Source: Patescibacteria group bacterium (lineage in GTDB: Bacteria > Patescibacteriota > Minisyncoccia > Phycocordibacterales > JAKFXT01). From it: a stretch of 64,000 nucleotides of DNA. The position numbers and the translations under genes were made by a program. Positions within the stretch are counted from its first letter, which is position 1, and each line of letters opens with the position of its first letter. The notes below the pieces were generated by a model that was not told the origin of the DNA, did no database searches, and saw only the letters and a list, made by a program, of their open reading frames with translations. The stretch covers positions 14,889 through 78,888 of the forward strand of contig JAKFXT010000015.1 of the NCBI GenBank assembly GCA_021731245.1. The letters run 5' to 3'. Positions 3,235 to 41,412 of this stretch are shown piece after piece.

Positions 3235-3962
3235 TATTTTTTATAACCAATGGCTATAATATTTCCAGAAAACATTAAGGGGTATTCTGAGCCAAGGAGT
3301 TTTGCTAATATTTTTTGTCCCAACTTGATAAAAGGGTTTCGTCTCATAGGTTGATACATTATTTTTATATTTCCGAATCCAGCAATACTCAATATCTGAA
3401 TTAGGAGTTTTCGGCTGAAAGCAAATTCATGAGTCAAATCAGAAAAGAGGGTTTTGACGCCAAGTGGACTATCAGCATTTGGAACTTCAATTATAAAAAA
3501 GCCACCAGATTTTACTTTTTTATTTATAAGATTTATAAGGTACTGCACCTTATCTTTTTTAATATGCTCGACAATGTTGAAAGCGGTAATAATATCAAAA
3601 TGATTGTCGTTTTTTGATTCTAGGAAATTGAACACATCTCCTTGAATAATGTTTTTTAAATCAAGTTCTTTGTTTGCATAGTTAACGAATTTATCAATTT
3701 GCTCTACGCCTTCATAATTTACATAGCCTAATTTTTTGCAAGTATCTAAGAAAAGTCCATAACCACATGCCAAATCAACTATTTTTATAGACCTGTCTTT
3801 AGGGAAAAAGGGGTCAATAAATCTCGTTTTATATTCAATGAATCTCCTTTTTTTTAATGCCTCATCAGGTTGGGAATAGAATTCTTCCACCCCATTAGAA
3901 AGTTTTACTGATGATGTTTTATCATCTTTTGATTTATTCTCTTCGTCTTCAATTATTATCAT
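3234..3962 (-). CDS. class I SAM-dependent methyltransferase
   Basis: Motif I VDLACGYGLF is present. Acidic/hydrophobic motifs II/III (DIITAFNIVEHI) fit the Methyltransf_11/12-type fold. Confidence 0.8.
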   Translation of the reverse strand: MIIIEDEENKSKDDKTSSVKLSNGVEEFYSQPDEALKKRRFIEYKTRFIDPFFPKDRSIKIVDLACGYGLFLDTCKKLGYVNYEGVEQIDKFVNYANKELDLKNIIQGDVFNFLESKNDNHFDIITAFNIVEHIKKDKVQYLINLINKKVKSGGFFIIEVPNADSPLGVKTLFSDLTHEFAFSRKLLIQILSIAGFGNIKIMYQPMRRNPFIKLGQKILAKLLGSEYPLMFSGNIIAIGYKK

Positions 3963-4015
3963 ATTTTTAAGTTTTGATGACTTTCTAACGGGACAAGTAA
4001 TTTTTCTAGTATGGG

Positions 4016-8704: not shown

Positions 8705-9457
8705 ATGAAAGAGATGCAAACATTTTTAGGTAAAGTTGCCATCGTTACTGGTGGCGGATCCGGTATTGGCAAGGCCACTGCTAATTTATTTTTTGAACGC
8801 GGCGCATCAGTAGTTGTTGCAGGCCGCGGTGAAAAAATTAAAGCAACAGCCAAGGAGATTGATCCATCAGGCAAACGTGTTTTTGGAGTTGAACTCGATT
8901 TATCAAGAGAAGAAGAAGTTAAAAAAATGGTGGAAGAAACCATTAAGAAATTTGGTCAAGTTGATATTTTGGTCAATACGGCTGGTACTTCATCGGGTGG
9001 CAAAATTGATGAAATCACAGTTGAACAGTGGGATATGATAAATCGGAATAATGGTCTTGCAACATTTCTTTGCTGCAAATATGCGATTGCCGAAATGAAA
9101 AAAAGAAAGTACGGAAAAGTGGTCAATGTTTCTTCTATTGCTGGTCGTTTCCGTGGTATGACCTCTGGCCTCCATTATGCATACGCTAAATCTGGCATCA
9201 TCGGCTTTACTAGACAACTTGGTGCTGAGGTCGCTAAATTCGGCATTAACGTTAATGTTATGGCACCGTCACAAACAATGACCCCAATGCTTCGCGCGCT
9301 AATCAATGACGATATTGAAAAAGAACTTAATGCCAAAATTCCTCTTGGATATATCGCTAAGCCGGAACAACAAGCTGAGGTAATTCTTTTTCTTAGTTCC
9401 GATGCTGCAAGCTATATGGTTGGTGCTACTATTGACGTCAATGGAGGACAATTCTAG
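8705..9457 (+). CDS. SDR-family oxidoreductase
   Basis: TGGGSGIGKA cofactor motif, catalytic YAYAKSG (YxxxK) and NVNVMAPS are present. Confidence 0.85.
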   Translation: MKEMQTFLGKVAIVTGGGSGIGKATANLFFERGASVVVAGRGEKIKATAKEIDPSGKRVFGVELDLSREEEVKKMVEETIKKFGQVDILVNTAGTSSGGKIDEITVEQWDMINRNNGLATFLCCKYAIAEMKKRKYGKVVNVSSIAGRFRGMTSGLHYAYAKSGIIGFTRQLGAEVAKFGINVNVMAPSQTMTPMLRALINDDIEKELNAKIPLGYIAKPEQQAEVILFLSSDAASYMVGATIDVNGGQF

Positions 9458-19226: not shown

Positions 19227-19440
19227 GTAAGTGAGTGCTAACACAATCTTGTTGGTTCTAACGAATGTCTGCGAAAGAGCCCCTAAGGGAAACCTTGTGG
19301 GGCCTTTTCGTGCCCGCACATAGGCTTTTTGTTATACTTCGACTGAAGTCCTGATTATTCTTATGTATGGCTCCCGGCCTGCGCTCACTTAAGACATTAG
19401 TTTTGGAGCTAGCACCCGGGGGCCATATATCGGTGTAATT
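19227..19440 (+). ncRNA. candidate structured RNA: murB leader/riboswitch-like element, or an independent sRNA (for example 6S-like)
   Basis: Starts about 6 nt after the -10. The 5' segment GUAAGUGAGUGC (19227-38) pairs with GCGCUCACUUAA (19381-92) to close a roughly 165-nt domain. Inside is a hairpin GCCCCUAAGG-GAAA-CCUUGUGGGGC. It is followed by a short hairpin plus UAAUUUUUAUUU (terminator/attenuator-like) before murB. Confidence 0.3.
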
Positions 19441-19447
19441 TTTATTT

Positions 19448-19512
19448 ATCCCGTTAGAGAAAAATTAAATTTAATACAATAACTCATGCTCACAGACCTC
19501 TCTAATGGGATG
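19448..19512 (+). promoter_or_regulatory. bipartite inverted-repeat leader motif (copy B) at the murB start: ATCCCGTTAGAGA ... TCTCTAATGGGAT(G)
   Basis: Forms a 13-bp helix with one G.U and a 39-nt loop. It carries a compensatory change (AGA/TCT here, AAA/TTT in the other copies). Confidence 0.5.
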
Positions 19513-20523
19513 CAAGAAAACGTTTCTCTGAAATCTTTGACTACATTTCGTATTGGTGGGCAGGCCCGCTTTTTTTGTTTGATAAACAATATAGAGGATT
19601 TAAAGAAAGCGACCCTTTTTGCTAAAGATAAAGGACTTAATATTTTTGTGCTCGGGGGCGGTTCAAATATCCTAGTTTCCGACGATGGATTTGATGGGTT
19701 GGTTGTGAAAATTGATATAGAAGGTATTGAAATTAAAGAACAAGGAGAAGATTTTTCAGTTTCGGTTGGAGCTGGAGTTGTCTGGGATAATTTTGTTGAG
19801 GAGATGGTTTCAAAAGAAATATTTGATCTTGAGAATTTATCAGGAATTCCAGGCAGTGTCGGCGCCGCTCCAATTCAAAATATCGGCGCTTATGGAAAAG
19901 AAGTAAAAGAGGCGATTCTTTCGGTTGAGGTTTTTGATTTAGAAAATTTAAAAGAAATTAAACTTAGTAATGAAGAATGCCAGTTTTCTTATAGAGATAG
20001 TATTTTCAAAAAGAAAGAAGGGAAAAAACTTGTTGTAACTAAGGTTAATTTTTTATTAAAAAAAATCTTCAGTCCGGACATAAGTTATAAAGATATAAAA
20101 GAATACTTTTCAGGGCGTGATTTGGAAGTTACCCCACTTAATCTTCGTGAAGCTGTTATTTCTATAAGAAAAAACAAACTACCTGATCTTGAAATGTATG
20201 GGAGTGCGGGGTCTTTTTTTAAAAACCCAATAATAGATGAGACCCTGGCTGTTTCTTTACTAAAAACTTACCCCAATGTGCCTAATTGGAAGGATTATAG
20301 CGGGAAGACGAAGATTTCGGCCGCCTTTCTTATAGATAAGGTGTGCGGATTTGGTCATGAAAGTGTGGGGGATGCTTCTGTTTGGGAAAAACAGAATCTA
20401 GTTCTAATAAATAAAGGAAATGGAACAGCAAAAGATGTTTTAGACCTAGCAGAAAGAATTCAAAATTGTGTAAAAGAAAAAACAGGGCTTAATTTAGAAA
20501 GGGAAGTTCAATTTATTTCTTAA
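19510..20523 (+). CDS. murB: UDP-N-acetylenolpyruvoylglucosamine reductase
   Basis: FAD-binding domain LTTFRIGGQARFF ... VLGGGSNIL, and the MurB C-terminal domain. The start was placed at the ATG of the conserved TAATGGGATG motif; an in-frame ATG at 19486 is the alternative. Confidence 0.85.
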   Translation: MQENVSLKSLTTFRIGGQARFFCLINNIEDLKKATLFAKDKGLNIFVLGGGSNILVSDDGFDGLVVKIDIEGIEIKEQGEDFSVSVGAGVVWDNFVEEMVSKEIFDLENLSGIPGSVGAAPIQNIGAYGKEVKEAILSVEVFDLENLKEIKLSNEECQFSYRDSIFKKKEGKKLVVTKVNFLLKKIFSPDISYKDIKEYFSGRDLEVTPLNLREAVISIRKNKLPDLEMYGSAGSFFKNPIIDETLAVSLLKTYPNVPNWKDYSGKTKISAAFLIDKVCGFGHESVGDASVWEKQNLVLINKGNGTAKDVLDLAERIQNCVKEKTGLNLEREVQFIS

Positions 20524-40431: not shown

Positions 40432-41412
40432 ATGACACCAAAAACAACCGCCAAGGATTTTTTCGTCTATCTCGGCACAGTAATACTCCTATATGTTTCT
40501 TTTGGTTCTCTCCTCAATCTTCTTTTCAATTACATAAATTATTTTTTCCCAGACCTTCTTACAGATAGTGTTTATTACTATGATCCGTATACAGCCGCGG
40601 TTAGATTTTCTTTAGCAGTACTCATAATTTTGTTCCCAGTGTTTTGGTTTGCAACTTACTATACAAATAAAGATTTAAGAGCTCATCCAGAAAAACAAGA
40701 GCTTGGAATTAGAAAATGGTTGCTCTATCTTACAATTTTTGTTGCATCCATCATTGTCATAGGAGATTTGGTAACACTAGTAAATGTTTTTCTAAACGGT
40801 GAAATTACCACTCGATTTATATTAAAAGTTGGTACGGTATTGATTCTAACGGGACTAACTCTTCTTTACTACACTTGGGATTTGAAAGGGAAATATATAG
40901 AGAAGCCAATGGTAGGGCGCTCCCTTGGAGTCTTGATGGCTGTAATTGTTGCGGCTTCAATTATTGGCGGATTCTTTGTTATAGGATCTCCCGCAAGTCA
41001 AAGACAAATTCGTTTTGATCAGCAAAAGTTGAGTGATCTCCAAAATATTCAATGGCAAATAGTTAATTATTGGCAACAGAAATCAAAAATGCCAAAGACG
41101 CTTTCTGATTTAGCCGACCCAATAAGTGGTGCTGTAATACCAAAAGATAAGGAAACAGGAAAAGATTATGAGTACACTTTAGGAGTTGGCACAAGCTTTA
41201 AACTTTGCGCTGTCTTCAATAAAGAAAGCAATGAAAGAAGTTACCCAGACCCATATGGAGGAAAAGGAGGTGGAATAGGGTTAAGTGAGCCTTCCATGAC
41301 GTATCCATATCCTGGTCTTGGAATAGATGAAAATTGGAAGCACCCTGCTGGAAATTATTGTTTTGAAAGAAAGATTGATCCAGAGAGATATAAGCCTTAT
41401 CCGAAAATATAA
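40432..41412 (+). CDS. hypothetical membrane protein (4 N-terminal TM helices plus an extracytoplasmic domain)
   Basis: Topology only. No recognisable catalytic motif. Confidence 0.45.
   Translation: MTPKTTAKDFFVYLGTVILLYVSFGSLLNLLFNYINYFFPDLLTDSVYYYDPYTAAVRFSLAVLIILFPVFWFATYYTNKDLRAHPEKQELGIRKWLLYLTIFVASIIVIGDLVTLVNVFLNGEITTRFILKVGTVLILTGLTLLYYTWDLKGKYIEKPMVGRSLGVLMAVIVAASIIGGFFVIGSPASQRQIRFDQQKLSDLQNIQWQIVNYWQQKSKMPKTLSDLADPISGAVIPKDKETGKDYEYTLGVGTSFKLCAVFNKESNERSYPDPYGGKGGGIGLSEPSMTYPYPGLGIDENWKHPAGNYCFERKIDPERYKPYPKI

Follow-up and report, generated by a model that had tools for sequence, protein, structure and literature searches.

An inverted repeat around the start codon of murB in a Patescibacteria genome is probably one copy of a short palindromic mobile element

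Rickettsia palindromic elements (RPEs) are short palindromic repeats that are inserted in frame in protein-coding genes and translated, and the Correia/NEMIS and ERIC families are transposable elements of the miniature inverted-repeat kind (MITEs) that lie directly upstream of genes, are co-transcribed with them, give rise to long RNA hairpins and can carry promoters (PMC10969869). Here we describe an inverted repeat at the start of murB in a 64,000-nucleotide stretch of a Patescibacteria group bacterium (contig JAKFXT010000015.1; the whole stretch is called the window, and positions are counted from its first letter). A first-pass annotation, made from the letters of the window, had taken this repeat for a selected RNA helix. 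We consider it probable that the repeat is one copy of a short, MITE-like palindromic mobile element: it has terminal inverted repeats and a target duplication, is small and carries no transposase gene, occurs in many dispersed copies, and is present or absent at orthologous sites. The family appears to be undescribed, as far as an incomplete coverage of the literature can tell. Searches with the arm sequences returned unrelated primer matches only, text searches on Patescibacteria or the candidate phyla radiation (CPR) combined with palindromes, MITEs or leaderless mRNAs gave nothing relevant, and 2026 preprints on the discovery of non-coding elements do not mention it.

The arms of the murB repeat, ATCCCGTTAGAGA (19448-19460) and TCTCTAATGGGAT (19499-19511), are reverse-complementary save for one G/T position, and the 3′ arm runs into the murB ATG at 19510-19512, as first annotated. 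A flexible-gap pattern built on the two arms matches four times in the window and not once in 100 dinucleotide shuffles, and loosening the scan to two mismatches per arm yields no further copies in the window. Two of these matches, before the O-antigen-ligase-like gene (16716-16827) and before gap (35178-35239), had been seen in the first pass; the fourth, on the minus strand, had been missed, and the spacer between the 13-nt arms at murB is 38 nt rather than 39. Pfam confirms the identities of the genes beside the copies, two of the four being surface-glycan genes. The four copies, labelled A to D, and their parts are as follows.

16710-16833, plus strand: copy A, ATGAAT, 112-nt element (16716-16827), ATGAAT, before a Wzy_C/TPR gene
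16710-16823, plus strand: open reading frame (ORF) of copy A, 37 codons, from the upstream ATG at 16710 to a TAA in the 3′ arm (16821-16823); the ATG of the gene, at 16828, follows 4 nt after the TAA
16693-16701, plus strand: extended -10-like box TGATATAGT of copy A, 8 nt before the upstream ATGAAT, kept in the relatives L241 and L244
19444-19449, plus strand: decayed upstream duplicate of the start codon in copy B (murB), ATTTAT, formerly ATGCAT; ATTCAT in the L241 orthologue
19447-19460, plus strand: 5′ arm of copy B, the left terminal inverted repeat, with core CCCGTTAGA (19450-19458) and inner GA
19461-19498, plus strand: interior of copy B, 38 nt, A/T-rich, with a TACAAT box (19475-19480) and two in-frame codons, a TAA (19480-19482) and an ATG (19486-19488)
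19499-19512, plus strand: 3′ arm of copy B, with core TCTAATGGG (19501-19509), and the ancestral murB ATG (19510-19512)
35172-35242, plus strand: copy C (gap), ACTTGT flank, 62-nt element (35178-35239), ATG at 35240
35202-35209, plus strand: box TGTATAAT between the arms of copy C, 30 nt from its ATG
3888-3998, minus strand: copy D (S-adenosylmethionine (SAM)-methyltransferase gene), ACTTGT flank (3998-3993), 102-nt element (3992-3891), GTG (3890-3888)
40845-40853, minus strand: orphan CCCGTTAGA half-site inside an ORF, with no partner arm within 140 nt, probably a chance match

The core arms of copy D lie at 3992-3984 and 3899-3891, followed by the GTG at 3890; its entire element is free of stops and in frame with the methyltransferase gene, and its interior holds an ATG at 3962-3960.

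The evidence for insertion comes from the flanks of the copies and from empty sites in relatives. Across the family, a direct-repeat signal in the flanks appears at register 6 only. The base adjoining each arm belongs to the inverted repeat and the duplicated target is the next four bases, which are identical on both sides in 56 of 155 copies where 6.2 would be expected; 43 of the 56 identical duplications have the form TNNA (TGAA, TTCA, TTGA, TCAA, TAAA). The duplicated bases are typically the TGAA of an ATGAA. In a sample anchored on the ATG, 51 copies have ATGAAT as the hexamer on their upstream side, 14 have ATGAGT and eight have ATGGAT. Upstream and downstream hexamers match at five or six of their six positions in 78 of 88 copies; they track each other at positions 1 to 5, and position 6 is always T. 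From this tracking and from the identical 4-nt flanks, the target can be written A|TGAA|N. The terminal A (or G) of the element and the duplicated TG rebuild an ATG (or GTG) directly after the 3′ arm, so that a gene struck at its start codon stays intact.

At the Wzy-like gene, the relative L244 (65% protein identity) has the empty site CACTT-ATGAAT-ATAGCT, and the window and the syntenic relative L241 (80% identity) have the filled site ATGAAT[element]ATGAAT. The murB element is likewise present in the window and in L241; the site is empty in L272 (57%, syntenic), which reads ...GTAATTTC|ATGCAAGAAAAT, that is ...TAATTTC-ATGCAAGAAAAT, and in L273 (55% identity), which reads ...CTATTCT-ATGCAGGAAAAT, and murB of L244 also lacks the element. 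Before gap, the element is absent from four relatives of 77-91% identity (L245-L248). The relatives compared show the copies before the Wzy-like gene and murB to be insertions, which is hard to reconcile with the conserved, selected structure first proposed.

At the ATGAAT site of its Wzy-like gene, L241 (9776-9926) carries different arms (CCTGTTAGTAGAAAATGGCAT ... ATGCCATTTTTCACTACAGG) around an interior that cannot be aligned with that of copy A. Either the copy has diverged heavily, core position 3 having gone from C-G to T-A with compensation among other changes, or a related element has been inserted independently at a hot spot.

MurB of L241 is 72% identical to that of the window, and the murB element is common to both. 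Since ATGCAAGAAAA is the murB start in L272 and L273, both of which lack the element, the insertion took place at the murB start codon; the alternative that ATG 19510 is derived and the insertion fell after codon 4, a reading taken from L244, is ruled out by the starts of L272 and L273. Comparison with these relatives shows the copy to be old and inserted at the ancestral start codon. Its upstream duplicate has decayed from ATGCAT to ATTCAT in L241 and ATTTAT in the window, and the frame from this duplicate is closed by the TAA at 19480. Both genomes have an interior ATG (19486 in the window) at a distance of exactly 8 codons from the ancestral one downstream, and translation from it reads the 3′ arm as L-S-N-G. 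The ancestral ATG has become ATA in L241, which must therefore start at the interior ATG; deposited proteins start there in both genomes (P0241 in the window, 345 aa, from 19486). No further orthologous murB copies are available for a study of covariation in place: after the relative at 72%, the next MurB, at 57%, lacks the element, the lineage being sparsely sampled.

The exact two-arm pattern was scanned in collections of species-representative genomes, metagenome contigs and viral contigs, and a second scan, in metagenomes, was left unbiased at the G/T position and anchored on the following ATG. Two-arm loci number at least 120 in genome contigs, at least 120 in metagenome contigs and 23 in viral contigs, more than 260 over the three collections. 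By our own estimate, about 1,000 matches to the exact pattern would be expected by chance in the 596 Gb scanned; nearly all of the matches listed bear traits that the pattern did not ask for, namely a helix that continues beyond the pattern on its inner and outer sides and short direct repeats around it, and a few genome matches, such as those in Photobacterium and Aequorivita, look like chance. Among the matches listed, Patescibacteria (Saccharibacteria, Parcubacteria/Paceibacterota and others) make up about 60% of the genome loci, and the other hosts are Planctomycetota (Pirellulales, Phycisphaerae), Omnitrophota, Desulfobacterota, Cloacimonadota and Stahlbacteria. Most of the 23 viral stretches (L249-L271, IMG/VR) have typical flanks (e.g., attcat...attcat) and a few are chance-like; these copies are consistent with horizontal spread or with misclassified host contigs. 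Arms come as pairs and almost never alone, so the lone half-sites that would have spoken against a paired unit are not what the genomes hold, and nearly all loci consist of one isolated pair.

Downstream genes, identified by eye from their N-termini, are unrelated to each other: EF-P, bS21, uL4, GatC, SHMT and an aminoacyl-tRNA synthetase, in addition to GAPDH and MurB of the window. All-against-all clustering of 1,252 ORFs from 120 loci revealed no protein family enriched near the copies, only housekeeping families. A neighbouring transposase or recombinase was accordingly rejected; orphan arms do not lie beside a transposase either.

The consensus arms read Y-CCCGTTAGA-NNN / NNN-TCTAAYGGG-R, a terminal inverted repeat of 13-14 bp. 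Its 9-bp core is kept as sequence: among 194 pairs that share only the hexamer [AG]TTAGA / TCTAA[CT], 156 have CCC/GGG and only one is a compensated core variant. Around the core, pairing is kept and the bases vary. The outer pair, at -1, covaries (Watson-Crick in 94% of copies; T-A in 178, C-G in 94), and at the inner pairs 10-12, where each of the four pair types is represented, Watson-Crick pairing reaches 93, 92 and 80% of copies, against 45-49% when partners are shuffled; from position 13 inward pairing is at background. The difference between AAA/UUU and AGA/UCU arms that the first pass had noticed is real, the inner pair being G-C in the murB copy and A-T in the three other window copies. 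It is ordinary variation of the terminal repeat at position 11 (A-T in 164 copies, G-C in 85 across the family) rather than the compensatory change under selection for which it was taken.

Elements measure 24-143 nt, with interiors of 6 to about 125 nt and modes near 45 and 85; the spacing between arm centres varies freely from 15 to about 134 bp, without helical phasing. Interiors are mostly unrelated (82 clusters from 85 copies), and some sub-families keep conserved interiors, which are sometimes GC-rich and structured. Some loci (L110, L048, L057, L029, L034, L078 and L112) show either copies nested within copies or minimal copies reduced to a bare hairpin whose loop is 6-12 nt long. Evidently the element can be its own target, and the mobile unit may consist of no more than the arms. 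At one locus (L079, 2146-2259, minus strand) a complete tRNA gene, on the opposite strand, lies between the arms, and 12 nt, ACCAACTGAGCT, are repeated just beyond the 3′ arm; this could be a case of cargo capture, or of insertion within a tRNA gene with partial duplication.

Many copies can be read through by ribosomes. An ATG still opens the upstream duplicate in 88 copies, and in 52 of these no stop interrupts the interior in the frame of that ATG, compared with 15 and 16 in the other two frames, 15 in mononucleotide shuffles and 16-25 in the frames of the reverse strand. With one representative per interior cluster the excess persists (48 of 82 stop-free, against 11 and 13 in the other frames; p = 6e-20). 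The open frame ends at a TAA in the 3′ arm in 20 copies and at a TGA overlapping the rebuilt ATGA in 21, and in 11 no stop occurs within 12 nt past the rebuilt ATG. Nearly all upstream ATGs lie outside longer ORFs, and a TANNNT box ends 6-9 nt ahead of 35 of 85 such ATGs, as it does in leaderless genes. Copy A fits this arrangement exactly: a -10-like box, 8 nt, ATGAAT, an open frame of 37 codons, TAA, 4 nt, ATG. An early rule, by which element length would equal 1 mod 3 (7 of 7 cases), was abandoned when it disappeared in the unbiased sample (33/23/32).

Six copies lie in frame inside long ORFs (L220, L117, L179, L012, L065 and L067); their lengths are multiples of three and all read PVR...SNG. 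By eye, the hosts include SecA (L220; ...EMMR[PVRSLARAEGASPQDLGEATSNG]MRQLE, with an ATGCGT duplication), a RecJ-like DHH protein (L117), a HemK-like methyltransferase and a response-regulator-like protein. The inserted peptides are 19-35 residues long, and one sub-family reads PVRS(L/H)ARA(E/K)G(A/T)SP(Q/K)DLGE(A/D)TSNG.

As to the starts of other genes in the window, a Shine-Dalgarno-like (GGAG-like) motif is present at only 3 of 56 genes, so that such sequences are almost lacking. Several genes have TATAAT exactly 6 nt before the ATG (e.g., 4876 on the minus strand, 26689, 32371, 42471 on the minus strand and 61653, among starts poor in Shine-Dalgarno sequences), a layout typical of leaderless mRNAs. 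In others an A/T-rich leader follows a TGnTATAAT box that stands 25-35 nt upstream.

These frames suggest a plausible model of re-initiation. In young copies, ribosomes would begin at the ATG of the upstream duplicate, which often coincides with the 5′ end of the mRNA or lies close to it, and would pass through the element; while translating they would keep the arms from pairing, so that the hairpin stays open, and on reaching the 3′-arm TAA or the ATGA overlap they would terminate and re-initiate at the rebuilt ATG. Where the length of the element is a multiple of three they would read straight on into the protein. Were a stop to come too early, the hairpin could close and cover the start codon; the selection against stops would find its explanation here. 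On a wider reading, which we put forward tentatively and hold to be a good deal less probable than mobility itself, the family would be specialised for start codons across phyla: it would target the TGAA of ATGAA, rebuild ATG or GTG and be transparent to translation, forming two-step units in Patescibacteria that have leaderless mRNAs and no Shine-Dalgarno sequences, with older copies donating starts (as at murB 19486) and being perhaps domesticated.

Could the helix be selected as RNA? According to the first-pass annotation it is a translational operator shared by murB, the O-antigen-ligase-like gene and gap, through which cell-wall, surface-glycan and glycolytic genes would be co-regulated. 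Folding, which had been suggested as a check, does give a helix of 13-15 bp in each of the four window copies (z-scores -1.9 to -3.3), with the AUG buried, and the unequal pair is G.T in the orientation of the gene in all four. At murB the 5′ arm is preceded by a conserved promoter-like box and a long, conserved and structured leader, from which it is probable that the transcript includes both arms; AUG 19510 would then be buried in the helix and AUG 19486 displayed in a 38-nt A/U-rich loop. More generally, a hairpin enclosing the start codon can form as RNA, given that both arms lie in translated mRNA in many members of the family. Yet we judge the operator very unlikely. The arms precede unrelated housekeeping genes across several phyla, orthologous sites in relatives lack the element, and the core is kept as sequence and not merely as pairing. 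The G.U pair taken to be conserved is G-C in about 90% of copies: at core position 4, an unbiased, gene-oriented sample gives G-C 116, G.T 10 and A.C 3 (129 copies in all), and the murB orthologue of L241 has C in its 3′ arm, its 5′ arm (CCAGTTTAGAGA) having decayed without compensation. In a first sample of start codons abutting the arm, 23 copies had the G.U orientation, nine the A.C orientation and four were perfect. In the variable inner helix, mismatches read in the sense of the gene are A.C in 20 cases and G.U in 7, which is the opposite of what selection on the sense RNA predicts. No Rfam 15 family reaches its gathering score, whether for the window or for 12 loci, and for 19150-19560, around the murB leader and start, none appears even at E<=1; a cis-regulatory structured RNA was rejected on these grounds together with the absence at orthologous genes and the excess of A.C. 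Judged from the copies compared, complementarity of the arms is a property of a DNA palindrome and not of selection on the sense transcript. Because the L241 orthologue has C, the T of murB in the window represents a derived C-to-T change at a CpG; for the T in all four window copies, concerted evolution, deamination of the coding strand and selection are possible causes.

A palindrome acting as DNA could also be regulatory, its arms being half-sites for a looping dimeric transcription factor or recombination sites flanking an invertible promoter. The sequence conservation of the core, the -10-like boxes between the arms in copies B, C and D, and the surface-glycan genes next to two of the four copies would suit such a role, to which we nevertheless give the least credence of all. 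Its difficulties are the free spacing without helical phasing, the 6-12-nt loops of minimal copies, which can neither invert nor loop, the in-frame copies inside essential genes, the target duplications and empty sites, which indicate insertion, and the lack of any regulator or recombinase gene enriched nearby. The same element might, on the other hand, owe its movement not to a DDE cut-and-paste transposase but to a tyrosine HUH enzyme, of the REP/RAYT or IS200/IS605 kind, acting on a hairpin of single-stranded DNA. Inner arm pairs that are complementary copy by copy, bare hairpins, nested copies, an excess of A.C over G.U on the sense strand that hints at folding of the other strand, and many insertions at the promoter-proximal, transiently single-stranded starts of leaderless genes all fit this route. 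We regard it as quite unlikely, since a clear 4-nt duplication is present here and REP and IS200/IS605 make none, since the GTAG/CGTC tag is missing and since no Y1 transposase was seen nearby. Somewhat more room exists for a mobile origin followed by co-option of a sub-family, comprising copies C and D and possibly all four T-bearing copies, either as a start-codon hairpin that silences read-through, in the manner of IS10, or as a cassette of promoter and short leader. This sub-family, with ACTTGT or ACCTGT flanks, numbers 34 copies, 27 of which have the 3′-arm T; nearly all stand directly before an ATG, and it is only through RNA wobbles that TGT can pair with AUG and G with U. A TANNNT box stands 6-11 nt ahead of the ATG in 18 of the 34 against 24 of 113 copies, and relatives have TGTTATAAT 26-36 nt before gap, a distance at which copy C carries its own box. 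The better preservation of the arms than of the interior at murB also points this way. Against co-option, the traits of the sub-family could descend from one master copy, gene conversion or coding-strand CpG deamination could account for the T in four out of four copies, an internal promoter would leave the 5′ arm outside the main transcript and hence without an RNA helix, and promoter scans were at chance level. Neither TTGTCC (in ACTTGTCC) nor TTAGAA (in the arm) was accepted as a -35 box, their spacing to the -10-like boxes not being kept across the sub-family. We think co-option improbable.

The preferred reading, that of a MITE-like mobile element, has points against it as well. No autonomous element or transposase was found near the copies or the orphan arms, in scans that did not extend to arms 1-2 kb apart, and interiors as unrelated as these are unusual for a copy-and-paste MITE family. 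The ACTTGT sub-family is without visible target duplication, and its departures from the palindrome are all G.U wobbles in the sense RNA, a pattern that leaves room for an RNA role in that sub-family. Between window and L241, the murB arms differ at about 3 of 27 positions and the interior at about 18 of 42 (hand-counted), which could reflect host-level selection on the arms or gene conversion between copies. Stops lie inside 37% of the copies with an upstream ATG, and the re-initiation model is drawn from reading-frame statistics.

Some observations on the surroundings of the copies deserve record. Upstream of murB, a strongly structured and very conserved region (19225-19445; L241 12320-12535, L244 8925-9208, L272 405-600) comprises a hairpin and terminator-like module (about 19225-19315), a box TGTTATACT (19334-19342) and a 34-pair hairpin (19357-19440), the latter about 93% identical between genomes of 65-80% protein identity and with a fold z-score of -5.0. 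The region, which has no relation to the palindromic element, may be a cis-regulatory leader of murB or a small RNA of that gene. In L244 the ancestral murB ATG is now ATA and a new ATG stands 4 codons upstream; at this start (9205-9225, gcgcAATGGGAATTAAAATAGAA) the letters AATGGGA are identical to the end of the 3′ arm of the element, which may be chance or the remnant of an imprecisely lost copy. Near gap, the relative of 91% identity has a reverse-transcriptase gene (RVT_1) directly upstream (L245, 321-1463), and in L247 (2997-3362) a 23S_rRNA_IVP/bAvd-like gene adjoins rpiB; the RVT_1 and bAvd-like genes are hints of a diversity-generating retroelement or an intervening-sequence protein.

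For annotation, the mobile reading would mean that hundreds of inverted repeats at start codons in Patescibacteria and other uncultivated phyla belong to one mobile family and are not riboswitches or operators. The element also shifts start-codon calls, as in the choice between 19486 and 19510 for murB, where the insertion supplied a new start codon and the sister lineage now uses it in place of the original. If true, landing on and rebuilding start codons with selected readability would be an unusual lifestyle for selfish DNA in very compact genomes, and would offer indirect evidence on the initiation of translation in organisms without Shine-Dalgarno sequences.

Several known systems resemble the element in part. 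An integron attC site has the order 5′-RYYYAAC ... GTTRRRY-3′ with the variable part between; the order here, GTTAGA ... TCTAAC on both strands, is the reverse topology, and attC was rejected. CRISPR arrays and tandem hairpin units were set aside because the loci hold single isolated pairs. With repetitive extragenic palindromic sequences (REPs) and REPINs the element shares abundance as extragenic hairpin palindromes, inverted pairs of units around a spacer and the lack of a transposase inside the repeat. REPs are not known to duplicate their target, are species-specific and avoid coding sequence. In all of these respects, and in the tag, they are unlike the element, which has a target duplication and no GTAG/CGTC tag, and a REP/REPIN identity was rejected; REPs carry a GTAG or CGTC tag (PMC3733652).

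The ends recall another group. The element has CCC...GGG ends and a 4-bp T..A duplication; piggyBac, to which the IS1380 transposases are related in prokaryotes, has CCC/GGG ends and inserts at TTAA (PMC7351741, PMC10140906). In the present element the duplicated bases follow TNNA or TGNN and are not confined to TTAA, and one variable pair precedes the CCC. The 13-bp repeat of piggyBac, which we take to be CCCTAGAAAGATA, resembles CCCGTTAGAAAT of the element. Kinship with piggyBac/IS1380 is offered as a lead only, with no claim of membership; as such, piggyBac-like ends in bacteria would be a concrete lead for transposon biology.

Burying a start codon in a helix is itself familiar. In the fold-back inhibition of IS10, a complementary 5′ segment buries the start codon in those transcripts that include it, and in leader-ORF coupling, upstream translation opens a helix and termination next to the AUG allows re-initiation. 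Here, by contrast, the insertion itself would create the arrangement, apparently again and again at hundreds of unrelated genes.

The closest functional analogues are RPEs first and Correia/ERIC-type MITEs next. Like RPEs, the element is found in frame in genes, as the PVR...SNG insertions in SecA, the RecJ-like protein and others, under strong selection against stops in the host frame. It differs in length (24-143 nt against about 150 bp), in having the start codon as its typical site with a 4-nt duplication that rebuilds ATG or GTG, and in its spread over several phyla, Patescibacteria and other environmental ones, where RPEs are confined to one genus, Rickettsia; its sequence is presumably unrelated to theirs, no direct comparison with RPE sequences having been made. 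Correia elements have 26-bp repeats of another sequence and a TA duplication; unlike the element, they have conserved interiors and are limited to one genus, and cleavage by RNase III has been shown for them. What we describe is thus a MITE-like palindromic element of a known kind with an unusual habit: insertion at start codons that it rebuilds, selected readability and a multi-phylum spread.

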